64,000 bases of DNA, taken from contig CM119371.1 of assembly GCA_051294905.1 (NCBI GenBank), forward strand, positions 11,658,001-11,722,000. The letters run 5' to 3'. Shown here one piece after another: positions 18,650 through 51,499 of this stretch. The DNA is from Botryllus schlosseri. Its lineage: Eukaryota. Each line of letters begins with the position of its first letter. The first letter of the stretch is position 1. The position numbers were made by a program, and so were the translations under genes. Under the pieces are notes generated by a model. The model ran no database searches, was not told the DNA's origin, and was given only the letters and a program-made list of their open reading frames with translations.

Positions 18650-21600
18650 ATACCCCAGTCGACTCCGAAGTTTGGGTTGATCCAGACGAAGAAAGGTTAG
18701 TAGCATTTGCTTCGTGGAGTAGATATACAGTACATGTCATTATACGATAGCTCTACCGAATCAATGAACTCTTTTTAAACTAAATTATCTCGTGAAGCCA
18801 GTTCCAATTAATAATAAGTTATGTTGCTCCATCATAAGATCAGTCACTACACGCTTTTGACATCCTACCCACTGCTTCAGTGCTTAATATTACCTATAAA
18901 ATAAGTAATTTGCTTGTAACTTTTTTTCTGTTCATTTTTAAGAGTAAGTTCTATGGAAGTGAGATAGAAACATGTTGCTTCTGCGTCTTTTAAGCCCAAA
19001 ACTGACTTTCTAGTGTAAGCGGTTATCAAGTTATTATGAAATTAGCTATTTTCGGATCGTTTGGTGAAATTACACGACCACTAGAGGGTGTACGAACACA
19101 TGCCAAGACCCTTTTTTGAAATTCAATAATTTTCATTTTTCACTCCACCCTAAACTCCAATACTCTTGCCTGAAGGTCTGTTAACAAAAAGACAATGCAT
19201 TCTAAAATCTGAGCTAGTGAAGTATTTCTTTTCTCATCTAGGATTGAAATATGTCATGTCATGACTAGAGCCCCCCCCCCCCCCCTCGATTATCAGTTTG
19301 CCGATAATAGCCACTCGATCTGACACTTTGCGAGAAATGTCGGTATTGGCCGTTAGAGGTCAAAAAGTATTGGCAATATTCGTTTACTTCCATATTGTTC
19401 AGATTCAGGCTATTTTGCTTTTTTCATGCCGTAGCTTGACAATGGTTGTAAAGCTGAAGGTTTTGAAGTGCGATTTTAAAATTGGATGTGATGTCGGAAT
19501 TATCGGTGAAGGTGTTAGGGCTGGGCACAATGATTCGAATATAAATTTTGATGATTCGAGTTTTTAGAGTACTGAAATGATACGCTCCACGCCACTGAAA
19601 GTCAATTTATCAACGTGAATTATTGTTTCGATACTAATTTTCACTTTTGAAGCCTTGAAACCTTGATTGGCCGTATCGTAACATACGAAACATATGGTAA
19701 AAAGCTACTGGAGATAGCACATTTCTGAATTCATGATCATCCCACAACATTGTCACCGAATGCAATGAAATCGGTATGGTCGGAAAAAGACCAAAGCATC
19801 TGAAATGTGATGGATATTCTTTGTGGTCGTATGAAGGGTACATATTTGAACTTTGACATTTTTCATTATGTTATGACGTCATAATGAGTGATATTCGATT
19901 ACTCGACGTGAAGCATATTACGTGATTCAGAATCGAATCACTCAGGTACTCGATTTTGCCCAGCCCTAATCTGATTACGGCGGGACTCGAGTCATTTATC
20001 ATGACGTTGAGAACACCTGCACTCATTCTACCGAATTGTGCTGTGCCATATTCGATTTTTCCATTCAAATTGAAATAAGCTTAATGTTTGGACAAGCTGT
20101 ACACTTCCACCCGGTTCAGTTTTGAGCTGCTTACAATAAACGAGACTTATGTCTTTCTACAGTTCAACGAACCCGCCAGATCTGGATAACTTGCTTGGCC
20201 AGGTCGTGGGTGATCTTTTCGGGGGTATGGGCATTGTGGCGGAACCTCCGCTGCAAGCGCAGCCATCTTCACTGCCTGCAGAGACAACTCCGCTGCCTGC
20301 AGAGCCTATTACGCGGCCTGCAGAGACAATTCCGTTGCCTGCAGAGACTATTACGCGGCTTGCAGAGACAATTCCGTTGCATTCAGAGCCAATTACGCGG
20401 CCTGCCGAGACAATTCCGCTGCCTGCAGAGCCTATTACGCTGCCTGCAGGGCCATCTGCGGTATCCACTGAGCCATCTTCATCGGCAGGGCCCCCGCTGC
20501 CCGCATTGGATGCCCGCAAGATGAAAAAAACACAAGAGGTGAGGTCTATTGTAGATTACTTTACCTTTTGGCAATTTTTAGTTCTCTCGGGCAGTGGTTC
20601 TCGACCTTGGCCCCGCGAATCATTTTCAGGGGGTCCACGAAACCTCTAAATTTGCAACACAATTCACAACGTAATTTGTAATTCTCAAAGCTAGGCAAAT
20701 TGTAAGGCAGTTTCGCTTCATAACTGCTAAAGCGTCAGGACTCACAGCAACTGAATGACCTTCTCCGAGGAAACATCCTATATCCTGTGCAAACTCATCA
20801 ATTAGTATGATGTTATTTTCACGAAAATTCATTTTGTGGCTGTTTCTCACAAGCCTATACAGTTAACATTTGCGCGAGATAGATGACGGTTGCACGATAA
20901 TTGGGCTAATTTTGAACGAATACTTGAGGTCCGCGGAGGTCTGTCAAGGTCCAAAAGGGGTCCACAATGACTGCGAACCACTCCCCTTTCTTCAAAACAA
21001 CCCCCTTTTTCTCGGCTGGCCAAGCGCCTGTTTTGTGGTATGTTCGTTTGCATCACCTCAAAGTATGAAATATGCTGCGAAATATATGTGTTACGGTAAC
21101 TAAATTTATTTTCGAAAATTACTACAAGTCATTTTTCGTTATTCGCAGGTGTGAGAATAGCCTGATCGCCGGGTCTGCCACGCGGCCAAAGGAAGAGAAA
21201 ACAAAGCGACGTTGTCTTTTGTTGGCGAAGACGCGCATAACCGAACAGCTTTCGAAAAGTGAGTCCCACAACAGGAGTATAGATTGCCAACGTAAGGATA
21301 GATATGCAGCTCCAGTTATCACGCACGCACAATGTGTTTGACTGCTGAGCCTGGGCAAAAGCAGCATTGTTGATAGTCCTATAGCTGGCGACCAGAGTGC
21401 TAAAATTGATTAAAACAGATCTTAATCGAAAGCTAGTGTTGCACTTTCGTCGAAAATACAAATTGAAATCTGGCCAGTGTATTAAAACCAGAGTTGGATC
21501 AATTGTAATTTGTAATTGAGCTGAATGTATTTAATTACATTTTTTCATGTAATTGTAATTGAAGCATTTCTATTTTGTGTAATTATAATTTGATCAAAAT

Positions 21601-24600
21601 TTTGCTCAATTACAATCTCAATTACATTTTCATGGAAACCTGACAATCACAACATAAAATAATCATTTAATTAATCAGTTATTCGTCGCACCAGTGAAAA
21701 TCTGGTACGAACCAGGACCTTAAGGCTTTAGTAAACAGTCACCACATGTAATAATTAGCCTATTTACATCGGTGTTCTATGCGTGCTGCATTATAACTAG
21801 ATAATTCAGTCACGCTAAACTATTTCCCATACTTCGGTAGCAACAGAAAACTTTGTGAATTACAATATAGGCTAAACCACTGGTTCTCAAACTGGGGGCG
21901 TGCCCCCTTGGGCGGCGTGAAAGCATCTGAACGGGGTGCGACGCTCCAGTGAGCTGAAATCTTTTCCACTTTTGGCCCGATTCACCTCCGTTTTGTAGTT
22001 ATTGCTTGGTGTATAGTCTGAATTTCGTAATGGAGAATGCTCTCATCAATAGTCATAATCTTCCATACCATCAAACTATATGTAAAAATTGCTAACTTTG
22101 TGGTTTTATTGTGTGCTATGAAGATAAGGGGGCACGAAATATCCACTGTCATAAAGGGGGGCGTGTCTAAAAAAGAACCAGTGGGCTAAACTAAATCTTA
22201 ATATTTCAAAAATGGATGAACAGCAAATAAACTATTCTGAAATCTGTGCTGAACTATTTCCTACACCACGGTCAAAGTTTCTTTTTTAATCTCTGACGAG
22301 TACCGAGGCTTGTTGCAACAAAAGCAAAAAAAATCATGTTTCCAACCAAGGCTTCATCAAACTTGATCACGCATTTGTAGAGATGCTGTCCCAATCTTAC
22401 CTCCAATCTTGGCCAATCTTACTGTTGCCAGAAACTTTTTGCACCCTAATGTTCATCAAATGCAATCTAACAGTTTTCGAGCAAGTGAAAATGTAAATGC
22501 AAACCAAAATATTGTAATTCTTCGTTATCAGGAGGTTCTTTCCTTTTGCATTTATTTTAATTTTACGCACCTTATCGGAATCTCGGAATCATCCTTATCG
22601 CTGACGCCCTACCAATTACATTTCCTTATCCTGACCTAGCTCTGAGTAGCCTAATCGTTTGGTTACATTTCATTGACTGTCCTGTAGCCTATTTGCTTTA
22701 GTCGCTCAAACCTCAAGTAATGAATACTCTGTTCAGCTTCTCGGATTCGGAGACTGCCGCCAAGTGGCTCCGACTTGGAAGTCGAGCGCATGACTGCCAG
22801 GCGAAAGACCAAGCGGATGAAGAGGCCCCTGTCGCCATCATCCGAATATGAAGGAAAAGGTTAGAATTAGATTACTCTGGTTCAATTAGAGTACTGAAAC
22901 ATTTCACAAATCAGATTGGAATTAGATTGTTTGCATTTCGCTCTAATTTAGTGAAATTAGATCGCTAGAATCATCAAGTTGTCCCAGTCTGTCTGAGACG
23001 AATGTGGTCATAATTGGCTGATTCGTGGATATTAACTTGAAATTAGTTGATAAGCCTAGACACTAAATTATCATGGAAGTGCGTCATGTTCTACATCCTT
23101 AGATGCTTCGTGCCAGCCTGGGTTCTTCTGATACTCATTAATCCAAGCAAAGTTACAATATGGCATCCTTTTTTGCGGCTGCCAGTAAAACTGACCTATC
23201 GATCTCGCATCCCATGACATGCCGTCTTATTTCTTGTCGCTTTCTTTTTCTATACTATATTCTTTACTTTCATTCAGTGTGCATGCCTACTCTTTACATC
23301 ACCTAGGCCAAGCGGGGTGTCTAATTCCGTAGACTACTTCTAGTCACTTCGACATCTTCCTGTCTTTTCGTTGTATCGCATTTTTTGTGGTGTATTGAAC
23401 TGATAAAATTGATAATAAACCAATGATGATGATGATGATGATGTGGTACGGATATAACACTGGGACCGAAAATTCTTGAAAAATTCTCATATATGTCATT
23501 CAAAAGCCGTGAACATTTTTCTTTGTGACCTTCAAAACGACCTATCCAGACCCAGTAATAATTTCTAAGTTGAAGTGTCGGGCCTGTATCGGGCTGTATA
23601 ACAACATATATTTTTCCTGCTTAATACCATGATTGAGTGGACTCTTTTCAATTCAATTACAAAATTTATAACGTGTGGGGTCGATGATGACATAGCCAAA
23701 TCAAGCAGCATAGTTCGACTAACTTATCATTTAGCTGCAGAAACGCGTCTACATACAGAGAGGCTGTATTTCATAAGCAACTACGGTATTTTATCGCTGT
23801 ACCGAGCTATTCGGAAGTCGAAATGTTTAGTTATGGACGATATGACTTAGGGTGGAGTGAAAATAAGGAGGGTTCGTAAGTCCTGACAAATGACCTAAAA
23901 CTTCAATAGAAATTGACGTTGGGGAATTGCCCATTTCGACAACTACTGGCAGTACAGTCATGATATAAAGCTCAAAAGCTGCCAAAAACATTATGTTTCT
24001 ATCTGTCTTAAGAAAGTTATGTCTATTGTGAACGCAGAACGAGTTATAGCATAAAAACACTAAAATTTTTAAGCGGGTAAATAGCGGGAGTAATGAAGTT
24101 GCATGTTAGTTGGATTAACACTAGAAAAGCTAAATATATCAATCTCATGTAAAAGCTCAATGTTTAGAGCTGCTACTACATCAATCTTTCGATCAGGCTC
24201 GCGGGCGACCCATCTAGTCATTTCGGGCTACCTGGGGCTCCTGAGCACGGCATTGGTGATCCCTTATCTGGTTGCCGGTGAACCCAGCCCTCGGTGAACC
24301 CAGCCTTACGAACGCGGCCCTCGGTGAACTCGGCCCTCGGGAAATTTTGTATTCACGGATTGAGTAAGCGGGGGAGATAACACGACGCTCACATACTCTA
24401 CTTGTTTATTTTGTGGTATTCATGGCGTTTCTCGAATACTATGGACCTCGGTGAATTCCGGCCCCGAACAATTTTGAATTAAAGCTGGGAGCTGGGATAT
24501 TAGAATTGGCGGAGGTATAGGATATGAGGGTTGGTGGAGGTGGGAAATTGGGTTGGTGGAGGTGGAGAGGGGATATTAGGGTTGCCGGAGGTGGGATATT

Positions 24601-27600
24601 AGGGTTGGGGGAGGGGGGATATTAGGGTTGGTGGAGGTGGGATATTAGGGTTGCCGGAGGTGGGATATTAGGGTTGCCAGAGGTGGGATATTAGGGTTGC
24701 CGGAGGTGGGATATTAGGGTTGGGGGAGGGGGGATATTATGGTTGGTGGAGGTGGGATATTAGGGTTGCCAGAGGTGGGATATTAGGGTTGCCGGAGGTG
24801 GGATATTAGGGTTGCCGGAGGTGGGATATTAGGGTTGGTGGAGGTGGGGTATTAGGGTTGCCGGAGGTGGGATATTAGGGTTGGGGGAGGGGGGATATCA
24901 GGGTTGGTGGAGGTGGGATATTAGGGTTGGTGGAGGTGGGATATTAGGGTTGCCGGAGGTGGGATATTAGGGTTGCTGGAGGTGGGATATTAGGGTTGGG
25001 GGAGGGGGGATATTATGGTTGCTGGTGAATACAAAATTTTCCGAGGGCGGAATTCACCGAAGGCTGGGTTCACCAAGGTCCGAGTTCACCGAGGGCCGAG
25101 TTTGTAAGGCTGAGTTCACTGGTAATCGTCATAGATCCATATTTTCGAAAGTCGCACGTCCGTCCCTCGCCAAGTCAATTCAACAATGAGCCAAGTTCCC
25201 AAGGGCCGAGTTCACCGAGCGCCGAGTTCACCGAGGGCCGAGTTTGTAAGGCTGGGTTCACTGGTAATCCCTTATCTAGAATATGGCTGTGGAAAGAGAC
25301 CCGAATGGTCGTCGAGCCCCCAATGTTATTATCCATTCACCATAATACGTATGTACCCTCAAATGTGTTAGCTTGAGCCTAAATCGAAACATCTTCTCAT
25401 GCCAACGTTTGAGTTAATATCTATTCTATATTTCCAAAGAGGTGACAAAACATTATTGTTTGGCTTGGCGTAGCTTAGAATATAGTACACGGCAAGAAAA
25501 TTTGGAACAGTATGACGCGGACTTGGTTACAATCCTGCTTGGAATCATGTATTGCAAAGCTACAAATTACTTTTTTGGTGTGCGTCAGTGATCATAATTT
25601 TGGAGGTGGCAAACAAGATACATTTTTTCAACTTTCAATAACTTTCGTACTGTTATGGCGTCACAATGAGAGATACTTGAATACTGGACTCGACTCCTAG
25701 TACTCAATTCAGAATCGAATCACTTGATGCAGTACAGTCATGGATATTAATTTTTCAATTTTAAAATTGACGTGCAATGGGGGGATGGCATAATTTGCTT
25801 TTATCGTGCCTGTTTACGATCTGCTGTGTTTGAAATGAGCTTCTCAACTAGCATTATTTTTTTTTACAGTGCTGCCTGATGGAAGAGGGAGTAGTAGACC
25901 TAAATCTTATGGGGGAAATTGTGCGATTGCCGACGAGGTCGCGGGTAATCTTTTCGGGGGTATCGGGATGGTGGCGGAACCTCCGCAGCGAGCGCAGTCA
26001 ACTTCGCTGCCCGCAGAGCCGGTACCGCGGCCTGCTGAAACAATTCCGCTGCCATCCACGGACACCACAGAGGCATCCTCAACGACAGCGCCCCCGATGC
26101 CCACATCGGATGCCGGCAAGGTGGAAAAAACACAACAGAGGTGAGGTCTATTGTAGATTACTTAACCTTTTGGCAATTTTGAGTTCTCCAGGGCAGTGGT
26201 TCTCAACCTTCATTTTCAGGGGCTCTACGAAGCCTCTAAATTTGCTACACGATTCACAACGTAATTTGTAATTTTCGAAGCTAGGGAAATCGTAACGCAG
26301 TTTCGTTTCATAACTGCTAAAGCGTCAGGACTCACAGCAACTGAATGACCTTCTCCATAGAAGCATCCTATATCCCGTGCAAACTCATCAATCAGTATGA
26401 TGTTATTTTCACGAAAATTCGTTTTGTGGCTGTTTATCACAAGCCTATACAGTTAATATTTGCGCAAGATAGATGACGGTTGCCCGATAATTGGGCTAAT
26501 TTTAAACGAATACTAGAGGGGGTCCGCGGAGGTCCGTCAAGGTCCAAAAAGGGTCCACGATGACAAAAAGGTCGAAAACCACTGAATTAGAACATCGTGT
26601 TTGCGAACCACTTCCCAATCTTCAAAACATCCCTCTTTTCTCGGCTGGCCACGTGCCTGTTTTGTGGTATGTCGTTTGCATCACCTCAAAGTATGAAATA
26701 TGCTGCGAAATATATGTGTTACGGTAACTAAATTTCTTTAAAAAAATTACTACGAGTTATTTTTCGTTATTCACAGGTGTGAGAATAGCCCGATTGTCGT
26801 GACTGCCACGCGCCCCCAGAAACAAAAAACAAAGCGACTTTGTCTTTTGCTGGCGAAGGCCCGCATAAACGAGCAGCTTACGAAAAGTGAGTACCACAGT
26901 AGGAGTATAGATTGCCAACGTAAGGATAGATATGCAGCTCCAGCTATCACGCACGCACAATGTGTTTCACTGCTGAGCCCGGGCAAAAGCAGCATTGTTG
27001 ATAGTCCTATAGCTGGCGACCTGGGTGCTAAAATTGATTGCAACGGGTCTTAATCGAAAGCTAGTGTTGCACTCGCGTCGAAAATACAAATTGAAATCTG
27101 GCCAGTGTATTGTAACAACCTCAAAATAGCCCGCAATATCTGAACATCGGGATTGTTCCTAACAATCACTCTGTTGAATTTTCATTGATGTGGTTATTTT
27201 GTTGTTGCGTCGTTCTTGGATTAGTTAGTTGGCCGCCGACCAGGGTTGTAATGACTCGAGTCGCGATTTTCTGATGACTCGACTTGACTCGAGTCATTTT
27301 CTCAAAATACGGTAATGACTTGACTCGATGGTTAACGTTCTCGTGTTCGAAATTTCATGCTGGTGACGTCATATTTTACGATACGATTGTCGATATACCA
27401 TGTTCTTTCCAATTATCTGCTAGTTGCTGACGATTACCCCAGATGAGTTTCAGCCTAAAATATTTGAATACTCTGTTAAGATTGCCGTACTCGGATTCAG
27501 AGATCGCCACCAAGTGGCTCCGACTCTGAAGTCAAGCAGATGCCCGCCAGGCGAAAGACGAAGTGCATGAAGAGGCCCCTGTCGCCATCATCCGATGATA

Positions 27601-30600
27601 GCGGGCCCGCGTCAAAGCGTGGTACACCTGAATATGAAGGGAAAGGTCAGAATTAGATTGCTCTGGTTCAATTAGAGTACTGAAACATTTCACAAATTAG
27701 ATTGGAATTAGATTGTTTGCATTTCGCTCTAATTTAGTGAAATTAGATCGCTAGAATTATCAAGTTGTCCAAGTCTGTCTGAGACGAATGTGGTCATTAT
27801 CGGCTAATTCGTGGATATTAACTTGAAATTTGTTGATAAGCTCAGACACTAAATTATCATGGAAGTGTGGCATGTTCTACATCGTAAGACGCTTCCTACC
27901 AGCCTGGCTTCTTCTGATACTCTTTAAATCAATAATCAAAGTTACAACATGGCATCCTTTTTTTGCGGCTGCCAGTAAAACTGCACTCGAGCCGCTGCAA
28001 AAACTACAATATAACGTACTCAATGTGGTCAATATTGGCTAATTCATGGATATTAACTTGAAATTTGTCTAGTAGTCTGTCAGATATGGCCCGATGCCAA
28101 ATGTGATGACAATGCACGGTTTTACAGTCACTATTGTATCGTATCCTTGCGATGATCGGATTCAATCTTTTTTCATCCCTTTCGATCATTAATGACATAT
28201 TTTCTACATCTTGCTTTTTTGATTTTCAAACAGCTATCAAAATGCAATGACGTAATTATGCTTTGTTCTTATAATAATTAACTAGACTTGAATTGTGACT
28301 TGACTTTAGTCACCATCAAGAATCGATTGACTTCACTCTAGTCAAAATGTGCGATGACTCGAAGGTGACTGACTTGATCCCGATACTGACACCTACACGC
28401 GTTCATCAGTCACTCCCAATTCAGAGACATATTCTAATCGGTGCAAGGTCAGGTAACAGTTACAATCTAGCGCCTGGATCTGGACGCTACAACGATAACA
28501 TTTTAAATTCTAGCATGAGTCGGAATACTGCCATCATGTGAAGTTTCCGCACAGATTGAACTCATTCCTTGTTTAAGAAACTTCATATCTGTTTGGCAGC
28601 TTCGCAGCCTATGGTGTCTAGTACGGTAGCGGTGCTTTTCAACGGTAGAATTGATACCTGAATTAGTTACAAGTACCCAAAACATTTAGTTACCACGCCT
28701 TTTCTGATCTTGGGTGGAAGATGAGTGTTTTTTTTACAGGAGACAACATATCGTGTACTATGACCGATGCTGGTATGACATATCAATCATGTAGCCTTGG
28801 AAATTCTGGACAACAAAAGTCAATTGCAAAACCATCGAAAGATCGCAACGTATTACGGAAGCCAAAAACAAGAGCTGCTGGGAAGTCGAAGCCGGCAAAG
28901 TTGTCCAGGTGAGGTTGTGATAAGTAGCTTTGCCCTAAGCTTTGCCCTGGGTTATAATCTTTCGTTGATATGACATAAGCTTGAAATGGCCGCTGGGGAC
29001 GGTAGCCTACAGTAGGGTTTATCGAAAGTATTATTTTTCTCAAAGTTTACTGACTATAGTTGGTAAATTGTTTGCTTGGATGATAAAATCTCTGACCATC
29101 AAATTTGACTCATTCCCAACCTGTAGAGGCAAAGCTATTAGGTGAACATTTTGGATTGTGATTTTTTTGTCAAACCTGTCTGGCTACACCGTGAGATTGT
29201 TAGGTTGTACGAGAAAACAGTCCAAAACAAATCTTGCCCAACTCCAAACTTTGGAAGAGAAATTATCAGGGTGGAAAAATTTGTATTTAAAGTGAATAGT
29301 ATTTACGTGTGTAATTACTTTGATTGCAGACCCGTCTCCAAGGCCGGCACAACACCATCTTCGGACGACAAACACCAGCAGGCAAGAAGGCGTAGGACAT
29401 TGGTGCCCCGGATTCCATCACCTGAAGAAGAAGGCGGAGGTCAGTGTTAGATCACGCTGGCCCACAGTAAGGCTGGACACAATGATTGGAACAGGGTTGT
29501 AACCAAGCCACAAGGCTTTGAGTCACAAGTCAATCTCACTTTTATAGTTTTGACTTGAGTCAAGTTGAGTCTTTTTCAATTCACCACCGAGTCAAGTCCG
29601 AGTTCAAGTCAGCGAGCAGAGGGTCGAGTCCAAGTCCAAGTCATTGTGTTGACTGCTCAGTTTCCAGTTGAAATCTTGTTAAACCCACTTTTTATAACTG
29701 TGGTGATATCGTATGGTTTGCATTTCTAATATATTAATTTTTCTCACTTTAAACAGTTTCTGGTCGCATTTTCAAGAGCCGGTACCAATTGACAAAATCC
29801 TAATAGCGTGGTTACTTTACTATTCTTTGAAAGCGCAATGAATCAGGCATGGTCGAAAACATATGAGATGACCTTTACTGTGATTGATGATATACGTAGG
29901 TGGAGCCAAACATCGTCACTCCGCAGCAGTATACCACTGTAATGTGTGATGGGTCGGTGACATGGGGTCAGGGGAGGCAAGTGAGGCAGTGCCTCACCGG
30001 TCTGCTAGATTTTGAATATATTTACTATCAAAATCACGCAACTTGCTTAGTTATTATTTGAAAATAAAGCATGAAAGGAGAGGTAAGACATCGGTGAGGC
30101 ACTTCCACGGCATGCCTTACCTATGATAGCGAAATTCAGCGTAAATATCATAGAATTTATAATAACTGATATCATTCGAATGTAATTGTCGCACTGATTC
30201 CAATTAGACTGCTCAATTCTTAAAGTATTTGGCGGTAACATAACGTTGCGAATTTTTAATTTTTAATGTCACTTCCACGGCAGTTCATTTCTCGTCGTAG
30301 ATCAGGAAGACATTGTGTATTTGAAAACTGCATTGTGATGCAGGCGCCGCCATGTCTCCTAGTGTCTTCGATCAATAAATGCATCGCGCAATTCAAGATT
30401 TCGTGGCGGGTACTTCAAATTCTGTAGTGATATTGGTCTCCGGCGCGACAGCAACTTAAATTTGAGGAAATGGGCCCGAGCCCCTAGCCCTGAATACGCC
30501 ACCGTATTAACATCTCAGGGACATGTTTGTACCTTAAGCGGTGATCAGATTCAATCTTTTTCTACCCGGTTCAATCATAAATGACATATCTTTTACATCT

Positions 30601-33600
30601 TTGACTTTCAAACAGCTATCAAAATGCAATGACGTAATGATGCTTTGTACTTGTAACAATTAACTTGACTGGAATTGGAATTGTGACTTGACTCGTGACT
30701 GGACTTGTGACTTGACTTGAGTCACCTTCAAGAATCGATTGACTTGACTCCAGTCAAAATGTGCAATGACTCGTGACTCGAAGGTAGTGACTTGATCCCA
30801 GCACTGACACCTGCACGCGTTCATCAGTCACTCCCAATTCAGACATATTCTGATCGGTGCAAGGTCCGGTAACACTTACAATCTAGCGCCGGGGTATGGA
30901 CGCTACAACTATAACATTTTAAATTCTAGCATGAATCGGAAACTGCCATCATGTGAAGTTTCAGCTCAGATTGAACTCATTCCTTGTCCAAGAGACTTCA
31001 TATCTCTTTGGCAGCTTCGCAGCCTATGGTGTCTAGTACGGTAGCGGTGCTTTTCAACGGTAGAATTGATACCTGAATTAGTTACAAGTACTTGAAGCAT
31101 TTAGTTACCACGCCTTTCTGATCTTGGGTGGAAGATGAGTGTTTTTTTACAGGAGACGACATTTCGTGTCCTATAACCGATGCTGATATGCCATATCAGT
31201 CATATGGTCTTGGAAATTCTGGACAACAAAAGTCAATTGCAAAACCTTCGAAAGATCGCAACATATTACGGAAGCCAAAAACAGGACCCGCTGGGAAGTC
31301 GAAACCGGCCAAGTCGTCCAGGTGAGGTTGTGGTCGGTAAATAGGTTTTGCCATGGGTTGTAATGACCTGAGTCGCGATCTTTTGTTGACTTGACATAAT
31401 TTTGGAATGGTCGTTGAGGACAGTAGCTTACAGTAGGGTTTATCAAGAGTAATTATTTTTCTCAAATTCTACTGACTATAGTTGATAAATTGTTTGGTTG
31501 GATGATAAAATCTCTGACCATCGAATTGACTCAGTCCAAACCTGAAGAGGTAAAGCTATTAGAGGAGAAAAATTATGGATTCTATTTTTTTTCTCAAACT
31601 TTACTGCACTGGTTCCCAAACTTTTGTAGACACGTCCCCTTTAATGTTACATTGAATAATTTTGCGCCTCCCTCATCGTCATATCACAAAATGCAAATAG
31701 AATGCTAGCAACCCCAACGAATGTTTTTATGGCATGGAAGGTTATGACTAGGGCGATTTTTTTTTACCTAAAAACGGAAGATTTTGACCTAAAAAATCTA
31801 AATTTTGACTTTTTTTGACCTAAAAAAACTGAAATTTGACCAAATTTTGACCTCACGTATGCAAATTAGGTGTTTTCGCACATAATGTTAAAATTGTAGG
31901 GCCTACTACTTATTTTCATTTCTGGTTAGAACTGTCTGTCCTTACAAAGTAGATTGGCCTGAAAAAATGGTATGCCTCAAAAACTGACAAATTTTAACGT
32001 AAAAAACTGGTATTTTAACGAAATATGGCCCTATGAAGAAGTCCAGTAGTTACAATACGTAGTATGGTGGAAATAATTCAAATTTGTTGTACAACGAAAG
32101 ATACTTTCCTGCATTCTCGGGTAAAAAGTATCTGTCCTTACTAAGTAGCTGGTCAAGAATGTAGAAAGAATATTCAACAGTAGCAGTTGTTGGCTGACAA
32201 TACTGAAGTTGTGTGCACACTGCTGGTGACACACCGTGTAGCTTCATTCTGACAATGTTGTCTATATCACAATTTTTCAGCTTGCGCTTCTTGATATAAG
32301 AACATGAATGTCCAATTGTCCAAGCAGTTTTGCTTCAGTTAGGATATTGCGGTACGTTGAGCATAAACCATGTCACTATTTGTTTCATTTGACCGTTTAT
32401 GATTTACAGTGAGCGGACGATGGGCCGTTTACAACGTTAGGCCTATAAATTAGGCTGCAAGCTGTAAAATATCAAATGATAAGTTCACCGACAGCGCAAA
32501 ATCTTCGATACAAACGAAATGCAGTGGTCAAAAAATGTTTGACTTTGTAAACAATTTTGACAAATTTTGACCTAACGCTACAATTTTGACCTAATTTTGA
32601 CTTTTTTTTACATGTCAAAGACAAAATCGCCCTAGTTATGACTGAGGCGATTTTTTCAACTAAAAACGATGGATTTTGACCGTAAAAATCCTAATTTTGA
32701 CCGAATTTGACTTGTCGTATGCAAATTAGGTGTTAGGTAAAGTTAGAATTGTACTACTTCATTTCTGGTTGGAACTGTCTGTCCCTACGAAGTAGATTGG
32801 TCTGAAAAAATACTTCTGGGACTCGGAAGCTGACGAATTTTTACACGAAAAACCTTTTAATTCAACGAAATCTGACCCCAGTGGTTACATTACGCATTAT
32901 GGTGGAAATAAATAAAATACTTTATGGTACAACTAAAGATACTTTCCTAAGATACTCCCCAAGAGCGGAGAAAGAACGTTCAACAGAAGCAGTTGTTTGG
33001 CTGGCAACACTGAAGTTGTGCGTACACTGCTGGTGATACAGCGTGTTGCTTCACTCTGACAATGGTGTCTACGTCACAATTTTTCATCATGCGTTCTTTA
33101 TATTAAGAACCATGCAATGCCCACTTTAGTCTTGCTTCGGTTAGGATATTGCAGTACGTTGAGCATAACACAATGTCAGCCTATTTGTTTCATTTGACCG
33201 TTTATGATTCACAATGAGCAGACAATGGGCCGTTTACGAATGTAGGCCTATAAAATAGGCTACAAGCTATAAAATGTCGAATGATAAGTTCACCGACAGT
33301 GCAAAATCTATGATACAAACAAGATGCAGGTTGCAAAGAAGTTTTAACTTGGAAAACGATTTTGACTTTTTTTGCCATGTCAAAAAACAAATGGCCCTAG
33401 TTATGACTGTTGATGAGATAATTCTCCAATATGAAATTCGGACTATATGGAGAGCAACAAGTATAAACTGGAGGTAAATTGCACAAAGCGCAAAAATTTT
33501 TTGCACTTGGCCGCAGCTTGGCGCCCTCCTTCAGATGCTTTCACGCCCCCCAGTTTGAGAATCACTGCTATTCTGGCTGCCCCTTGAAATTGTCAGGTAG

Positions 33601-36600
33601 TGTAAGGAAACAGACCAGAACAAATCTTGCCCTATTCCAAACTTCCAAGAGAAATTATCGAGGTAGATAAAATTATATGTAAAGTGAATAGTATTTACGG
33701 TGGTAATTACATTGATTACAGGCCTGCCCGCAAGGCTGGCACAATACCATCTTCGGACGACAAAGACCAGCAGGCACGAAGGCGTAGGACTTTGGTTCCA
33801 CGGATTCTGCCACACGAAGCAGAAGGTGAAGGTCAGTATTAGATTACCCCGGTCAACAGTAGTGCTGGACACAATGATTCGAACAGGGTTGTAACCAAGT
33901 CACAAGTCAATCTCACTTTTATAGTTTTGACTCGAGTCAAGTCGAGTCATTTCCAACTCGCCACCACTTTCCGCCCCCTTCAGATGCTTTCACGCCCCCC
34001 CCCCCCGGTGTCTTGTACGGTTGCGGTGCTTTTCAACGGTAGAATTGATACCTGAAGAACAAGTACTCGAATCTTTTAGTTACCATCCCTTTTCTTATCT
34101 TGGGTGGAAGATGAGTGTTTTTTTTTACAGGAGACGACATATCGACTCCTATGACCGATGCTGGTATGCCATATCAGTCATGTAGTCTTGGGAATTCTGG
34201 GCAACAAAAGTCACTCGCAAAACCATCGAAAGATCGCAACATATTACGGAAGCCAAAAACAGGAGCGGCTGGGAAGTCGAAGCCGGCAAAGTCGTCCAGG
34301 TGAGGTTGCGGTCGATAAATAGGTTTTGGCCTGGGTTGTAATGACTCGAGTCGCATTCTTTTGTTGACTCGGCATAAGTTTGGAATGGCCGCTGAGGACT
34401 GAGGACGGTAGCCTACAGTAGGGTTTATCGAAAGCAATTATTTTTCTCAAAGTTTACTGACTATAGTTGATAAATTGTTTGGTTGGATGATAAAATCTCC
34501 GACCATCAAATTTGACTCAGTCCCAACCTGTAGAGGCAAAGCTATTAGGTGAACTTTTTGGATTGTGATTTTTTTTTCACAACTTTCTGGCTACCCCGTG
34601 AAATTGTCAGATTGTATGAGAAAACAGTCCAAAACAAATCTTGCGCAATTCCAAACTTCAGAAGAGAAATTATTGGGGTGGAAAAATTTGTATTTGAAGT
34701 GAATAGTATTTACTATGGTAACTACATTGATTACAGGCCTGCCCGCAAAGCCAGCACAACACCATCTTCGGACGACAAACACCAGCAGGCACGAAGGCGT
34801 AGGACATTGGTGCCCCGGATTCCACCACTCGAAGTAAAAGGCAAAGGTCAGTATTAGATTACCCAGGTCCTCAGTAGGGCTGGACACAATCATTCGAACA
34901 GGGTTGTAACCAATCACAAGGTTCCCAGTCACAAGTCCATCTCACTGTTATAGTTTTTCAATTCACCACCGAGTCAAGATCGAGTACAAGTCGGATAGTA
35001 GGGGGTCGAGTTCGAGTCCAAGTCATTATGGTCATTGGTCAGTTTTCAATTCAATTCAAACCAATTTTTCAACTCTGCTCCAATGATATAGAATGGCTCG
35101 CATTCATAATATCGTATTTTTTCTCAGTCTTAACAGTCTATGGCCCTATGTTCCAAGTATCAGGATTGATAAACGAAATACCAATAAGGTGGTAACCTTA
35201 CTATTCTTCAAAGTTACAAATGTCTCTCTTGGCCGTCCCCGTCTCGAGTCATATGACTAGGTTCGAGTCACGCACAATGACTCTAGTCGAGTCGTGTCCT
35301 TTTATGCATCTGAAAAAATGACTCGACTCGAGTCACCATAAAATCATGACTTGAGCCGGACGCGACAATCCAGAATATACTGCATGTTGGTTTTGCATCC
35401 CATTAAGGTCATGTTTCACCGCTTGAAAAGTGCTTCTTGAAGGTACAGAACTTCAATACATACTTCAATAATTCAATTGAATATAATATTCATAGTGAAA
35501 TGAACCCGAATATTTTCGTGTGACACTCGTCAGGGTTAACGGTCTACTTTTGTTGACGAAGGCTCGGTCTGTGTATTTTGATAAAATTCACGCTTTCAGA
35601 CGTTTACCTTAATTTTCCAAGTATAGTACGCCCCCATGTATAATACGTACCCCTAAAATTGCATGTAAATTCTGTGAAAAAGCCTGTACCCATGTATAGT
35701 ACGCACCCTGCATTTCAGTACATCCATAGTTCCGATTTTGTATACGATGTCATTCTGTCTTGCGATGTCACTCTTGAACAATCATTACAGGACGATCGCT
35801 AATCATTATACAATTAGCGGGATTGTCTTTAAACAATAGTAGATAGCGGCCAAAGCCTGCGAGGTCGGCGGCGAGTTAGTTTAGGCCAACGAACCGACAT
35901 CTTGCGCTCGATGCCTATTACAGATGCGATTGCGCCTAGGCTAACGGTTATGTCATGCGACTGATTATGCAAGCGATTATATCATGCGCACATGGCCTCT
36001 TGTATATGCCATTGTTCGGGCCTGTCGTTGACGCGATGAATTGGCGAGAATTGCTGCGCGCGACTGTCTATTACTGACCTCATTTCGCTCTCGTACAAAC
36101 GGCAAACCAACTCAGCAGGAGATCGCGTGATTGTGCACACGGCACTCGTTAATTAGCAACGCGCTTCCCTTAATTGGCAGCGCGTCACACTCTATAATAC
36201 GAATTACTACCCGCGATGGCTGAAAGTGATGCGCGAGTGGAAACAAACATGAAGAAAGGTGTGATTTCAAGTTTTTTTATCGAGGGAGATTTTTTCAAGC
36301 GTGTTGTTCCCATGTATAATACGCACCCCCCGATTTTAGGGCAAAAAATCGTGTAAATTTTTGCGGATTATACATGGAAAATTACGGTACGTCTCATTGG
36401 TGTGTCTGGTCCCAGTCGACTTTTATCAAAATGCATCAACCAAGCGTTTGTCAACAAAAGTAGTTTTTGTGCCATCGAAAAGTAGTATAATGGACGCTCT
36501 CGTATGCGAAAATTCATGCTGGTGACGTCATATCTTGTGATACAATTGTCGATAGACCATGTTCTTTCCGATTCTCTACGAGCTGCTGACAATTACCACC

Positions 36601-39600
36601 CTGACGAGTGTCAGCCGAAAATATTCGGGTTCATTTCAGTATGAATATACTGTTCAATGGCGTGTTGAAGATGTGTACCTCCGAAAGCTCTTAGCGCCAA
36701 CGAGAATGTAATTTCAGCACTCGACTCGAATCATAAGAATGAATGAATGCTGTGTTCAGATTCCCGGATTGGGAGATCGCCACCCAGTGGCTCCGACTCC
36801 GAAGTCGAGCAGATGCCCGTCAGGCGAAAGATCAAGCGCATGAAGAGGCCCCTGTCGCCATCATCTGATGATAGCGGGATCGCGCCAAAGCGCGGCACAC
36901 CTGAAAACAAAGGCAAAGGTCAGTATTAGATTACGGCGGTCAACACCAAATTGCTTCTGAGACCAGACTTGTACGACTAAGAAATGTTCGGCTTTCCAAA
37001 TTAGATTAGAATTAGAATTGTAGATACTCAAATTATTTCTATTAGATTACAATTATAATTAGAGCTACACATTTTTCCAAATAAGATTAGAATTACAAGT
37101 AGAAATACATATTTTTTTCCAAATTAGATTCGAATTAGAATCAGAAATAAAGTTTTTTTCAAATTTGGATTAGAATTCAGGTTGGAGCTACACATTTTTC
37201 CGAATTAGATTGGAATTGGAGTTAGAGCCAGGGCTTTGGAGCCGGAGCTCTACATAAAATTCAGCCGGAGCTAGAGCCTGTTATTTGAGGAGTAGCTCCG
37301 GCACCAACGTATTTCATAAGATGCTATTATATATGCAACCACTACATCTGCTGATGTATCATAATTGAACAGCAGGCCTGAATTTTAATTCTGAGACAGC
37401 AATGGCATAGAATAAAGTGCGTTGTAGTGCAACTATGATGTTGTCGACAATTGACAAGTATTCATCATAACGTCACAAGCCAGCACGGCGGCACCTCAGA
37501 GATGAGCGGATTTGAAATTTCTATGTCCTAATCCAATCCGAATCCGAACTTAAAATCCAAATCCTAATCCATACCTTTTTCATATTCAAGTCCATGTCCA
37601 ATCCTAATCCGATTCCAAATGGAAATTCAGAAAAAATACTAATTGATGCAATGGAGGGATTCGGAAATTATTTTTCACAACCAACGATTCACTTGATTCA
37701 AGATAACTTAGTAACCATAAGTACATTAATAAAGTTTGTCGCCATTCGCCACACGACATTTCAATCCCCCAGAAAATAGTTAAATCCAATCCAAATTCTG
37801 ATCCGTTCTGAAAAAAAATGTCACAAGGCTTTGAGTCACAAGTCAATCTCACTTTTATAGTTTTGAGTCATGTCGAGTCATTTTCAATTCATTACCGAGT
37901 CAAGTCCAAGTCAGCGAACAGAGTTCAATCCTGTTCAATCCACTTTTTTTCAAATCTGCCTGACTAATAAAGAACAGCTCACATTCGTTATATATTCATT
38001 TTACTTAGTCCTAACAGTTTCTGACCCTGTTTTCCACGTATCAGGACTGATAGACGACATACCAATCATGTGGTGACTTTACTATTCGTCCAAGTTACAA
38101 TGTGATGTTTGTCTCGGCCGTCCTAGTCTCGAGTCATATGACTTGGTTCGAGTCATGCAAAATGACTCGAGTACAAGTCGAGTCAAAGCACAAATTGACT
38201 CAAGTGATGTCGAGTCATTTTACGTATTTCACTACTCAAGACTGGGTAAACCAAGATCGTAATTTCAGTATAATTTCGAAGAATAGTAAAGTTACCATAA
38301 TGTTATTGCTTCGTCTATCGGTACTGGTACTTGAAAATGCGACCAGAAACTGGTAAAAGTGAGGAAAATTAGTATATTATGCATGTGAATCATTTGATAT
38401 CACCAAGCAGATTTGCAAAAAGTATATTTGACTTGACATTTAATAATCGTAACTGAACAGTCAACATGCGCATTGACTTGGGCTTGACACTCTATTCTTT
38501 GGACTCGGACTTGACTCGGTGGTGAATTGAAAATGACTCGACTTGACTCGAGGTAAAACTGTAAAAGAGGGATTGACTTCTGACTCGGAACCTTGAGACT
38601 TGGTTACAACCCTGCTAAATTTACGTATATAAACAAGATTTCAAAGTAAATACATTTTTGGTCAGTTTATTAGTAGTTTTTGTCCACGCAATAACATTGA
38701 TACATAGATTTTATGGTTTAAATTCCTACGAACTTTTTGCAGACCGCTCAGAAGTTGGTAGCGGACCGCATTTGGCTCGTGGGTAGCATAATGCCCAGGT
38801 CCGTGTTATCATATGGTACCCTAGCAGTGGTCGGATGCAAGCCCTTCGCAGCTGGTTCTATTACAAATGTCATATTTTTCAGCATGTTCAGGTGAAAAAA
38901 GTCCTGAATGGTAACCAGTAATGCTGACCCATTCGCTTATCCCATAAAATCACGTGAAACCGATCTTTGGAATCGGTGCAAATGGGCAGAATCAGACCAC
39001 CGCCTAAGTCCATTTGTAGAAGTTAGCCATTCATGTAGGCCTACCCTATAAGATAGCGGTGCATTTTATCGGGAGATTTAATTCATGATTCAGACACTTT
39101 AGCTTACTCGAACCATTTCGTGCAGCCCTAGTTACCACGCCTTTTCTGATCTTGGGGGAGTCATGAGCATTTTTTTTACAGGAGACGACATATCGTGTAC
39201 TATAATCGATGCTGGTAAGCCATATCAGTCATATAGTCTTGGAAATTCTGGACAACAAAAGTCACTCGCAAAACCATCGAAATTACGGGAGCCAAAATCA
39301 AGAGCTGAGAAGTCGAAGCCGGCCAAGTCGTCCAGGTGAGATTGTTGTCAGTAAATAAGTTTTGACCTGTGTTGTAATGACTCGAGTCGCAATTTTATGT
39401 TGACTTGACTCGAGTCATTTTGTGTATTTGTGACATAACAATGAAAGGTACCTCGAGCAATTCAACACTGACGCGTGACACACGATTTCGGACAAGTTAA
39501 TAACATTAGCAACAATTCCAACATAGTTCGAACGAGCGTGTGGTTGATGCGGTGATTGCTTTCCACGAGAGATTACACATCCTTTGTAACAAATTCCGAC

Positions 39601-42600
39601 CCTTTATACATGGGATTTCCAGCCTCTGGGCCATAGCCATTGAGCTTTTTAAGGGGGTACATGGGAAAGTTAACAAATCTTTATCGCCAAGTGTATTTTA
39701 CAATAAGAATTTGCATGATTTTACTACTGTATATTAAAGATGAAGGACGAATGGTCCTTTGTATCACCTAACCAGCAATTACCGTCATTTTTCATGTATA
39801 ATGCGCAAAATTTTCCGATTTTTAGTCCTAAAATGGGGGGCGGGGCGGGGGCGGGTGCGTATTACGCATCTGTATGAGTCTTGAAAAATTCTCCCTCAAA
39901 ATAGATCTTGAAATCACACCTTTCTTCATGTTTGTTTTAATCGCTCATCACATTCAGCCATCGTTTCCAGTAATTTGTATTATAAGTGTTACGCACTGCC
40001 AATCAGCGTGAAGCCTGTTGCCAATTAGCGAGAGACGTCTGCGCTGCACCACAGCAAGCGAACTCCTGAGTGGGTTTGCCGTTTGTACAGGAGCAAAATT
40101 AGGTCAATCCTTGCCAATTTATCGCGTGTACCAATATATTTTAGGGTGCATACTATACATGGGTACAGGCTTTTTTCCCAGAATTTACACGCCATTTTAA
40201 TGGTGCGTATTATACACGGTATATACGGTAGGACGTTTTCAGAGCAAAAACAAGCTCAACCATTACTGCAGATGTAATTACTAATTTTTCTCCATCACAT
40301 TTGATGTGTGTTGTATTGTAGGGAAAGTCATTACAGTAGAGAAATTTGGATTTGAAGTAAATAGTGTTCACGGTGGTATTTACAATATCTATAGGTCCAC
40401 CCGACAAGCTAGCGCGAAACAGAAAAATCTTGGTAAAAGGAAACGCTCACCATCTCCAGATGATGGCTGCGAGATTGCAACCAAGCGCCGAACTTTGGCG
40501 TCCGGGAGGGCCAAATCGTCCAGGTGAGATGGGGCCCTGAGTTGTGATGACTCGAGTTACAATTTTTTGTTGACTTGACTCGAGTCACATTTTGTTGGAC
40601 ATTGAAAATGACTTGAGCCACATTGTGTATGAACTCGACTAAGTGATGTGACCCGAACGACTCGACTTGACTCGAGTCGAATTTTCAAAAGCGTAAAATG
40701 ACTCAATTCGAGTCAACTTTTCTATTGACTCGACTTATCGTCAAGTCGTTGTGCGTGACTCGAACCAAGTCATATGACTCCAGAGTAGGACGGCCGAAAG
40801 AAGAAATTTTGTTGTAACTTAGAATAATGGTGAAGTCACCACATTACAGGTATTTCGTCTCTCAGTCCTGATACTGGGAAAAAATAGGGCTTGAAGCTGT
40901 TAAGATTGAGGAAAAATCACGATATTATGAAAGCGAGCCATTCTATATCACTCGAGTAGAGTGGAAAGTGGGCTGAACTGGATTGAACTGAAAACAGAAC
41001 AGGGACCGTAATGGCTTGGACTAGGACTCGAGTCAATACACTATGTCTTGGATTCGACCCTATGCTAGATCTGACTTGGATTCGGACTTGACAAGGGGGT
41101 GAATTGAAAATGACTCGACGTGACTTGAGTCAAAACTATGAAAGTGAGGCCGGCCGACTTTTCAGTGTAATTTCGAAAAACAGCAAAGTAACCGCATTAT
41201 TGGCATCTCGTGTAGCAGTACTGGTACTTGAAAATTCGACCAGGAACTGTTAAAAGCGAGGAAAATTAGTATGTCATAAATGCGAACCATTCGATATCAC
41301 CAAACAGAGTTTAAAAAAGTAGGTTTAAACAAGACTTTAACCTGAAACTGAGCACTGAGCACTGAGCAGTCAACACAATCTCTCGGACTCGTCCCTCTTC
41401 TTGTTGACTCGGACTCGGACTTGACTCGGTGGTGAATTGAAAACGACTCGACTTGACTCGAGTCAAAACTATAAAAGAGATATTGACTTGCGACTTGGTT
41501 ACAATCCTGCAACAATGTCAAAAAGTTCAATTGAAATAGTAATGGTCTAAAACCTACCTGATAATATTTGATGTGATGTGGAAATAAGATTATATTCTTT
41601 GTGGTGGCATAAAAAGGTACATAACTGAACTTTTCCCATCATTCGTTATGTTGTGATGTCGTAATTAGTTATATTCTATTCGAAGCCTGATATTCTATTT
41701 CGAATCAATCACTCGAGTACTAACCAAGAATGAGTTTAACAAGACTTGAGTTTGAGACTTAACAGTGAACAGTATGACTTGGACTGAGACTCTAGTCTCA
41801 ACACTATAGCTCAGACTCAATCCCTTGCACCCCGACTTCGACTCCTACTTAGTCGGTAGAAAATGTTTCGACTTGACTCAGTCAAGACTGTAATAGTGAG
41901 ATTTAGTGAGACGTCGTCTTATTTTCTAGGAAACCCGTCGTAGCTGCTACCACTGTGGAAGAATTTCCAGGTAAGCTTCAGGTCTTAGGCCCAATTTTAG
42001 GGGATTGGAGATTAACCTTGGCATTAATATTCATGTTGTTCTTCTCTAATCCATATATCACGGGTCGCTATCTCGCCTTGTGGAAATGACCGTCTCACTT
42101 GAAATTTTACATGCAAACGTACCCCAAAAAAGTCAAAATATTCGTATTTTTTTTCTGGTACATAATATTGACCTTGTATCCCTGCTGTCACCTCATGGCC
42201 TTATTCCACGCAAATAATAACTGAAAACTCCGAAATTTCAATAACATAATGGAGCTGTGTGTTTTTTTCAAGTTACAACCAAAAGATCACATGTTTCGTC
42301 CGATAACCCTATAAAATATATGGTTTGACCGTTATAAAACATATCTATCTATATTATCTCTGGGTGAAAATTGACTTCTTACCTTTCAAATGTTTGATAA
42401 TCGTTTTCTCGGATGTAAAATTTTGTTACGTAGCATCACTTTTGCAAAGCTGAGATTCAGACCTGTGCTATGCTTAAAGTTTTTATTCATAGTCTGCCAT
42501 CTCAAGAGGTTCAGAAAATCGCAGTAAACTTACAGCGAATTGTTGACAAAAAAAGGGATTTTTAAAATTTTTTATATTTTAAAATCAAATTTCTCTGAGC

Positions 42601-50589: not shown

Positions 50590-51170
50590 ACCGCTGAAAC
50601 CTCATTCCTTTCAATGACCACTTCTCTATGAAGCCGAAGCGTGGGACGACATTTGACGGCATGCGCCAACGCAGCACACGGCTGAATTATATCTGCTTCG
50701 GCAGTGCTCAGTGAGCGCCAGAACCTCAAGTCTCTCAGACGTTCCGCTCTGGAACACTGGACGCACATAACGAGCCAGCGCTGTATCTAACCAACGTTTA
50801 CAACGCTGGGCGCTAGGAACGAGTCAAAGCTATTGCTTTTTCTGTGGAAAATGAGTTAGAAGCAGGCCGATCAAGAGCAGCCTCAAAAGCCATCGGTAAA
50901 CTAGTTGGCCTCAAGAGGACCCGCATGAACGTCTGTACGGAAGACATCACAGCACACTTCAAAACCCTCTTATCTACACCTGCACCAAACATCGATGTGC
51001 TCGTTGCACCGCCTTCACTAGCAGCAAATCCTCTAGCGATCAATACAAACCTGATCGCTCTAGGTGAGCTCAGGACAGCCATGCATGAAGTACCACAATT
51101 CAAGGTCATCGGTATGTACGGCATCCCAACAGCTGCGTACACCTCGGGCATTGCACCTTTGCTCGTCGAC
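50590..51170 (+). pseudogene. LINE (RTE-like) ORF2 fragment from the linker before the RT domain
   Basis: HFKTLLS...IALGELRTAMHEVPQFKVIGMYGIPTAAY resembles the KAxGxDGIP pre-RT motif. It is cut at 51170 by an inverted exon copy. Confidence 0.55.
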
Positions 51171-51497
51171 CCAGGGCAAAGCTTGGGGCAAAGCTACTTA
51201 TCACAACCTCACCTGGACGACTTTGCCGGCTTCGACCTCCCAGCAGCTCTTGTTTTTGGTTTCCGTAATATGTTGCGATCTTTTGATGGTTTTGCAATTG
51301 ACTTTTGTTGTCCAGAATTTCCAAGACTACTTGATTGATATGGCATACCAGCATCAGTCATAGGACACGATATGTCGTCTCCTGCAAAAAAACACTCATC
51401 TTCCACCCAAGATCAGAAAAGGCGTGGTAACTTAATGATTTGAGTACACGTAACTAATTCAGGTGTCAACTCTACCGTTAAAAAGCACTGCTACCAT
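51171..51497 (-). pseudogene. Inverted copy of the repeated CENP-C-like exon 'A' with both intron flanks
   Basis: GDDISCPMTDAGMPYQSSSLGNSGQQKSIAKPSKDRNILRKPK with intact AG and GT sites. The downstream flank GTGAGGTTGTGATAAGTAGCTTTGCCC matches the 28740-28950 copy. Confidence 0.92.
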
Positions 51498-51499
51498 AC

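Follow-up and report, generated by a model that had tools for sequence, protein, structure and literature searches.

A tandem array of phase-compatible exon modules in Botryllus schlosseri, probably part of a lineage-specific gene for a basic disordered protein

The stretch analysed here, referred to as the window, comprises 64,000 nt of Botryllus schlosseri DNA (assembly GCA_051294905.1, CM119371.1, positions 11,658,001-11,722,000 of the forward strand, read 5' to 3'), and coordinates given below are window positions. It is carried by contig C1, and paralogous loci lie on contigs C11, C8 and C17; genome searches were made against the species' own 495-Mb assembly. The forward strand of the window holds an array of exon copies. 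The first, exon C0 (22737-22859, 123 nt), has an open frame, retains AG and GT, and is in frame with exon C1 (27481-27645, 165 nt), which has a weaker AAG acceptor. Three pairs follow, A1 (28740-28908) with B1 (29330-29439), A2 (31153-31321) with B2 (33722-33831), and A3 (34131-34299) with B3 (34737-34846), each of these A copies being 169 nt and each B copy 110 nt long. The array continues with exon C2 (36760-36918, 159 nt) and A4 (39182-39335, 154 nt) and ends with exon B' (40395-40523, 129 nt). C0 differs from C1 by deletions of 6 nt and 36 nt, and A4 carries 12-nt and 3-nt deletions that are both common to the C11 copy. The four A, three B and three C copies counted in the initial annotation were all located at the lengths it gave, but the inventory is amended by a fifth A copy, solitary and inverted (51213-51381, reverse strand). 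This copy shares 93% identity with A1 and has an intact frame and intact splice sites; on its two sides 120 nt and 43 nt of intron are retained (homology spans 51169-51499), and it adjoins a truncated LINE-like repeat.

Each of the 11 forward exons, and the inverted A copy too, has an AG acceptor and a GT donor, in agreement with the earlier claim that splice sites are kept before and after every copy. Length differences between copies are likewise multiples of three, as had been noticed (15 nt within A; 42, 6 and 36 nt within C). Exon C runs from phase 1 to phase 1, A from 1 to 2 and B from 2 to 1. Because A and B are complementary in this way, the A+B pair (279 nt) has the 1-to-1 phase symmetry first ascribed to it, as does C, each of whose lengths is a multiple of three. 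The same cannot be said of the last pair, in which B' had been taken for the closing B: B' runs from phase 2 to phase 2, so that with its 129 nt the array is exited in phase 2, and A4+B' (283 nt) is not phase-symmetric. Joined in silico, the ten exons C1-A1-B1-A2-B2-A3-B3-C2-A4-B' give 480 codons without a stop, and the eleven from C0 to B' give 521, again without a stop. Since A+B and C are phase-symmetric, each copy lengthened the frame without breaking it. All A+B units can be included together in frame, and the frame shift that can bar co-inclusion of mutually exclusive exons does not arise. The idea that the A exons are mutually exclusive because A alone is 3n+1 nt long was dropped after the true B exons had been placed.

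The introns of the array carry different insertions and indels, as the initial annotation had stated. A MITE-like element of 351 bp lies in the B1-A2 intron (29492-29842); a first look across the genome gave 5128 candidates for this element, and the 40 that were scored show 83-87% identity and are nearly all full length. Repeat insertions of about 2 kb (31603-33571) are present solely in the A2-B2 intron; part of this sequence is duplicated in tandem (31813-32569 / 32674-33374), with additional matches at 44449-45043 and 58286-58634. A piece present in the A-B intron of all three units (29008-29163 in the first) is an old dispersed repeat and not an exon: in a genome search 18 of 29 matches lie on other contigs or at a distance, with 71-89% identity, and 13 of 14 retrieved copies matched the piece and one did not. 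Within it, 29013-29122 (also at 31434 and 34419) was considered as exon B and rejected, being dispersed repeat with a 110-nt frame that is open in unit 1 only and has stops in units 2 and 3. It was weak peptide similarity to B' that revealed the true B exons.

Duplication at the DNA level is expected to leave homologous exons in tandem on the same strand, together with homologous introns, and this is the arrangement observed. The flanking introns of units 1 and 2 are 84% identical over 1.07 kb, those of units 1 and 3 are 82% identical over 1.24 kb, and further upstream the blocks 20387-21483 and 25996-27111 are 85% identical. The unit exon A-intron-exon B-intron was copied in tandem three times, probably through unequal crossing-over; the duplication itself is observed, and its mechanism is what we infer. 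A larger unit of 5.6 kb, containing C and the segment R described below, was copied once. B, B' and C are mosaics of one another: B combines a B'-type head with a C tail, while B' has a B-like head and upstream intron and an A-like tail and donor. Recombination between units may have generated the mosaic exons B and B'. Frame and splice sites, and a part of the sequence as well, have been maintained by weak purifying selection, and the introns have gained indels and transposons.

Two R segments lie upstream on the same strand. R1 (20149-20538) is an open frame that begins with ATG and has a GT donor; it holds a 21-bp minisatellite of 8.5 copies and shares the 5.6-kb duplicated unit with C0. 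R2 (25936-26140) is a decayed copy of R1 that has lost its 5' part and has a 2-nt indel ahead of the donor. The minisatellite exon R might itself encode an additional repeat belonging to this putative gene. Neither segment joins C in frame, the end phases being 0 for R1 and 2 for R2, with C in phase 1. A scan of the R-to-C interval for conserved open segments between AG and GT returned 107 overlapping candidates and no basis for choosing among them. Translated similarity to the C17 locus gave no further exons, a comparison that is uninformative because DNA-level similarity persists in the introns of that locus and extends over several frames. In the window array, neither a start, a stop nor a terminal exon was located. 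These missing gene ends favor an alternative in which the array is dead, that is, consists of unexpressed relics of a gene or gene fragment amplified by segmental duplication, its frame surviving through youth and luck. The inverted A copy, intact without an obvious surrounding gene, points in the same direction, and because this isolated copy is also intact, intactness alone is weak evidence for function.

Selection on translation was assessed by several further measures. In the three comparisons between A+B units, dN/dS is 0.35, 0.52 and 0.31 (one-sided Fisher p 0.002, 0.077 and 0.002, respectively), and the exon C1-C2 pair gives 0.45 (p 0.078). The lineage-specific (singleton) changes in window exons comprise 23 synonymous and 38 non-synonymous changes and no stops, compared with 15-18, 41-43 and 2-2.7 expected from neutral simulation of random mutation (joint P 0.002-0.016). 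The intron rate predicts about 4.2 indel events in exon A, where none is seen (P 0.015); all four to five exon indel events (12, 3, 6 and 36 nt) are multiples of three, compared with 8 of 31 intron indels. A dead array would thus have to account for dN/dS values of 0.31-0.52, significant in two of three unit pairs, as well as for the absence of the expected stops and, in exon A alone, of about four expected frameshifts. In its favor, substitution divergence is alike in exons (9-14%) and adjacent introns (10.5-17%); this holds for A (exon 8.9-10.7%, intron 11.0-12.2%) and for C (exon 13.0-13.9%, intron 10.5-17.0%). The variable sites of exon A are distributed over the three codon positions as 12:8:14. 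Weak purifying selection on translation of the repeats is what these data support, together with the contrast to C11 described below, and the selection originally proposed can be retained with the proviso that the constraint is weak. The accompanying picture of decaying introns applies to indels and transposon insertions but not to substitutions. The comparison suggested at the outset, of dN/dS and indel spectra between exon and intron copies, gave a divided answer, with dN/dS of 0.31-0.52 and differing indel patterns on one side and equal substitution divergence on the other.

The paralogous loci provide a reference for this decay. At C11, five of eight exons are broken by a frameshift, premature stop or lost splice site, compared with none of 12 in the window (Fisher p 0.0036), and the two loci are similarly diverged (A identity 87-89% at C11 versus 89-93% in the window). 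The C11 lesions comprise +1, -84/+1 and -9/-1 in its A copies, loss of AG together with a 17-nt deletion in exon C, and a TAA in B'; all three of its B copies are intact. The marks of a pseudogene are thus present at C11 and absent from the window, which again argues against a dead array, and the sister locus on C11 is decaying. If the gene in the window is expressed, this decaying paralog on another chromosome would be a built-in neutral control, by which the strength of selection on frame could be gauged apart from that on sequence. Broken copies are found at all three other loci of the family, a point in favor of a dead array: both C copies at C8 share the same 1-nt deletion, and two of three A-like pieces at C17 contain a stop. 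Modules also differ in number and order between the window and C11, where they run R, B, A, B, C, partial A, B, A4-type, B', and the minisatellite R is about 8 kb long at C11, compared with its 8.5 copies here.

The distribution of the family also bears on whether the exon-like pieces arrived with a mobile element or descend from one, for example a transposon with captured gene fragments. Occurrence on four contigs (C1, C8, C11 and C17) would suit such an origin, as would the abundance of MITEs and of LINE or LTR elements at the locus and the position of the inverted A copy beside a truncated LINE-like repeat. However, A, C and B' peptides found no matches in the assembly beyond these four contigs, and the many dispersed copies typical of a transposon-derived repeat are not seen for A, C or B'. 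Collinearity between the contig C1 and C11 loci, moreover, extends for over 40 kb (window 14268-60463), which argues for segmental duplication and not transposition. A scan of 135 window ORFs detected neither a transposase nor any other Pfam domain, two weak sub-threshold matches lying elsewhere and being unrelated to the exons. We consider a mobile origin highly improbable.

Expression of the array is expected to yield spliced reads. RNA data, taken from three contig sets and from about 6% of one raw RNA-seq run, were mapped to 25100-45099, with C0 and R1 lying outside this interval. In the RNA-seq run, depth was 0 in the A1 bin and 0.07 in the A4 bin, and no exon-exon junction was present among the 15 joints listed, a further 561 joints lying outside the listing. 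About 99% of the mapped reads are partial repeat matches, with depth at repeats only, and low-depth contigs from other runs pass unspliced across the donors of exons C1 and A1. Protein searches were negative. An exon A profile had a single match (E 4e-4) among 1.84 billion representative proteins, a short motif occurring four times in an 824-aa protein that is otherwise unlike, and this was read as chance. Word-based searches with A, R1 and C1 against longer proteins gave no relatives, and no Pfam family was found at E <= 0.01 on any ORF containing an A, B, C or B' exon. The near-zero depth on A1 and A4, the lack of spliced reads among the joints listed for this run and the lack of an annotated or homologous protein, together with the equality of exon and intron substitution divergence, speak for a dead array. 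Weighed against the selection statistics and the contrast with C11, they leave that alternative somewhat unlikely.

The conceptual protein is basic (pI 10.6) and strongly hydrophilic; Ser, Lys, Arg and Pro are abundant in it, Phe and Trp are absent, and repeated acidic Ser/Asp patches adjoin Lys/Arg runs. From this composition, the product is predicted to be an intrinsically disordered and probably nuclear phosphoprotein. In-frame skipping of C or A+B modules in an expressed gene, yielding isoforms of variable length, had also been proposed. Such skipping would be arithmetically possible, as C (123, 165 and 159 nt) and A+B (279 nt) are phase-symmetric, and, since module number differs between the window and C11, the protein would tolerate varying module numbers. 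Yet any in-frame tandem duplication shows such symmetry, which is uninformative on skipping, and the one RNA run (about 6% read) showed no spliced reads among the joints listed. A gene with skippable cassettes seems quite doubtful to us.

Taken together, these observations suggest that the window contains the repeat-bearing central part of a protein-coding gene, specific to its lineage, that is functional now or was so until recently, a reading to which we give a probability of roughly 0.6. Such a gene would probably encode a basic disordered protein and have been enlarged by tandem duplication of exon modules. The selection statistics speak for past selection, and a recent death of the gene is compatible with them. 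If the gene is expressed, it would add an unannotated lineage-specific gene to a tunicate genome. A more elaborate account, in our view unlikely, would see a tunicate-specific gene family of recent origin, still midway in its history, with one locus holding a selected modular frame of more than 500 codons, three paralogous loci decaying, recombination between modules making new exon types, and module number varying by locus. Were such a gene expressed, the length of its protein would be tunable through skipping of C or A+B modules together with copy-number variation.

Treacle and Nopp140 are acidic/basic nucleolar phosphoproteins with one repeat per exon. The conceptual protein resembles them in its alternating Ser/Asp-rich and Lys/Arg-rich stretches and in having one repeat piece per exon, but with no sequence relation and no Pfam match on the exon ORFs at E <= 0.01, the likeness may be taken as an analogy only. 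Tandem internal exon duplication that encodes repeat regions was reportedly also the topic of Bjorklund et al. in 2006. In the parts drawn on here, Schad, Kalmar and Tompa (2013, PMC3632108) describe tandem internal duplication of phase-symmetric exons as encoding disordered or repeat protein regions. As far as that account goes, the present locus agrees with it in its tandem homologous exons and introns, its growth by exon-plus-intron units, its phase-symmetric modules (C 1-1; A+B 1-1) and a product predicted to be highly hydrophilic and of low complexity. It differs in that two asymmetric exons (1-2 and 2-1), rather than a single symmetric one, make up the repeating unit, that the exons are mosaics of each other, and that no homolog or domain was found. 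Tandem exon duplications have further been linked to mutually exclusive splicing and are often unannotated (Ivanov and Pervouchine 2022, PMC9013439, in the parts drawn on here). Duplicated homologous exons with conserved splice sites are common to that system and this one; here, in contrast, co-inclusion of all units keeps the frame, so a choice of one exon among several is not forced. The locus reveals no new mechanism, and the type of event, the growth of a gene via copying of its own exons, is already known, making this a fairly ordinary case. If expressed, it would nevertheless be a tidy natural example of a disordered protein lengthened by copying a phase-compatible pair of exons.

Self-comparison of the window and direct reading of its sequence verified the duplicated exon modules, which run in the order C0-C1-A1-B1-A2-B2-A3-B3-C2-A4-B'. 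The A, B and C copies proposed in the initial annotation are present at their claimed lengths: three of exon C (C0, 22737-22859, 123 nt; C1, 27481-27645, 165 nt; C2, 36760-36918, 159 nt), four of exon A (A1-A3, 28740-28908, 31153-31321 and 34131-34299, 169 nt each; A4, 39182-39335, 154 nt) and three of exon B (29330-29439, 33722-33831 and 34737-34846, 110 nt each). All are flanked by AG (5') and GT (3'), as is B' (40395-40523). Exon phases are 1 to 1 for C, 1 to 2 for A and 2 to 1 for B, and joining C1-A1-B1-A2-B2-A3-B3-C2-A4-B' in silico yields 480 codons without a stop, or 521 with C0 added 5'. The proposed final A-B' pair held in part: B' lies in the open frame, but it is 129 nt long (phase 2 to 2) rather than 3n+2, and the chain therefore exits B' in phase 2. 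A weak peptide similarity to B' identified the true B exons. The sequence at 29013-29122, open for 110 nt, was rejected as exon B, since it belongs to an ancient dispersed repeat within the A-B intron and its frame is not conserved.

The count of four A copies was likewise incomplete, as a fifth, with frame and splice sites intact, lies inverted at 51213-51381 (minus strand). With 120 and 43 nt of flanking intron, its homology spans 51169-51499 (331 bp), shares 93% identity with A1 and abuts a truncated LINE-like dispersed repeat (345 first-look candidates) cut off at 51170. This copy looks like the product of rearrangement or template switching. The exon types are mosaics of one another: the last codons of B and its donor-side intron match those of C (26/26 bases for B3 and C2), and B' resembles B in its head and upstream intron and A in its tail and donor (21/22).

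Three tandem A-intron-B units were compared with their introns included; unit 1 is 84% identical to unit 2 across 1.07 kb and 82% identical to unit 3 across 1.24 kb. Because intron sequence is shared, the duplications are copies of genomic DNA. A 5.6-kb unit carrying C and R (R1, an ATG-headed open frame at 20149-20538, and R2, its decayed copy at 25936-26140) is also duplicated (20387-21483 and 25996-27111 at 85%; 22721-23193 and 27465-27983 at 83%). Repeat insertions account for the differences in intron length; a 351-bp MITE-like element (5128 first-look candidates genome-wide; 40 scored, at 83-87% identity) occupies 29492-29842 between B1 and A2, and about 2 kb of repeats is confined to the A2-B2 intron in the self-comparison. 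Directly 5' of A1 and A2, the introns (28593-28712 and 31008-31127) share 93-100% identity across about 120 nt, against a 10.7% difference between the exons; this stretch may be a local gene-conversion tract ending near the exon. A Lys/Arg-rich segment of about 69 codons, open in both R-C units (21129-21335 and 26757-26963), matches six sites of a locus on contig C17 in translation (best 53% over 89 aa, stop-containing); a related motif there lies directly 5' of one C-like exon. The segment is a candidate additional exon of the family. A 23-bp tandem repeat (about 23 copies, 24488-25021) with strong G>C skew sits between the two units.

The assembly searched comprises 495 Mb in 219 contigs, with the window at 11658001-11722000 of contig C1. 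The window opens with a plus-strand BEL/Pao retrotransposon polyprotein frame (3-5021, 1672 aa, open and continuing past the window start; Peptidase_A17, Integrase_H2C2, DUF1759, DUF5641), followed by an open minus-strand non-LTR reverse transcriptase frame (5577-7967, 797 aa); the remainder is AT-rich and dense in dispersed repeats. No copies of A, C or B' were found in the assembly beyond the loci on contigs C1, C11, C8 and C17, and these exons are therefore not transposon sequences. On contig C11, a collinear paralog of the whole locus matches 14268-60463 at 80-88% identity, with a module order unlike that of the window (R array, B, A, B, C, partial A, B, A4-type, B'). The contig C8 locus holds two C copies with an identical 1-nt deletion. 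C-like and A-like pieces alternate at the contig C17 cluster, which is older, and two of three A-like pieces contain a stop. A 21-bp (42-bp) minisatellite, open throughout in every plus-strand frame and in one on the minus strand, has 8.5 copies within R1 (20272-20449) and extends for about 8 kb on contig C11 (about 8906400-8914700) and several kb on contig C8 (about 18040000-18047400).

The C11 paralog allows intact and broken exons to be compared. Five of its eight exons are broken, versus none of 12 in the window (Fisher p 0.0036). Its A copies carry a +1 insertion, an 84-nt deletion plus a +1 insertion, and 9-nt and 1-nt deletions, respectively; in C the AG is gone and 17 nt are deleted, and B' has an in-frame TAA. 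All three B copies are intact, one with a 6-nt insertion. Identity of A between window and paralog (87-89%) is near that among window copies (89-93%).

The initial annotation held that selection preserved translation while introns decayed. Substitution divergence does not separate the two: exon A differs between units by 10.7, 8.9 and 9.5%, versus 11.2, 12.2 and 11.0% in aligned introns, exon C by 13.0 and 13.9% versus 10.5 and 17.0%, and variable sites in A fall 12:8:14 across codon positions 1, 2 and 3. Substitution levels taken alone say little about selection. The kind of change in window exons, however, is non-random. For the 92-codon A+B units dN/dS is 0.35, 0.52 and 0.31 (p 0.002, 0.077 and 0.002 for three dependent pairs; one-sided Fisher tests of synonymous versus non-synonymous proportions), and for C1-C2 it is 0.45 (p 0.078). 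Changes private to one window copy comprise 23 synonymous, 38 non-synonymous and no stops, versus 15-18, 41-43 and 2-2.7 under random mutation of the same exons; under that model, 23 or more synonymous changes and the absence of stops arise jointly with a probability of 0.002-0.016 across the transition shares assumed. Exon A has no indels across units 1-3, versus about 4.2 events expected from the intron rate (P 0.015), and each of the 4-5 indels found in window exons (12, 3, 6 and 36 nt) has a length divisible by 3, versus 8 of 31 in introns. We give roughly 60% to the reading that the array is the middle part of a lineage-specific gene, still active or active until recently, and that this part was enlarged by tandem copying of the two-exon A+B unit and of the larger R-C unit.

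Transcript evidence bears on the main alternative, that the exon array recently died, which we consider unlikely though far from negligible. A search of sequencing runs listed none from RNA that contained the locus sequence. One raw RNA-seq run carrying the window's species label (about 6% read) and three contig sets were compared with 25100-45099. Depth tracks repeats, with 0 in the A1 bin and 0.07 in the A4 bin of that run, and about 99% of placed reads match only partly. No exon junction occurs among the 15 joints listed for this interval (561 further joints lay outside the listing), and low-depth contigs cross the C1 and A1 donors unspliced. Also counting against a live gene, no protein relatives of A, C or R1 were found in the collections searched, and the gene's start and end were not located in the window. 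Neither R1 nor R2, which end in phases 0 and 2 respectively, connects in frame to C, which requires phase 1. A scan of 135 window ORFs gave no Pfam domains above threshold.

The conceptual product (pI 10.6, GRAVY -1.29; 14% Ser, 12% Lys, 11% Arg, 10% Pro; no Phe or Trp) points to a disordered, probably nuclear phosphoprotein. Exon lengths and phases would permit in-frame module skipping, as initially proposed. The locus adds modestly to what is known, with a two-exon repeat unit, mosaic exons and a decaying paralog usable as a neutral yardstick. That disordered proteins lengthen when symmetric exons are duplicated internally in tandem is well documented (PMC3632108), and tandem exon duplicates lacking annotation are common (PMC9013439); the window locus therefore belongs to an already known kind, internal tandem exon duplication.
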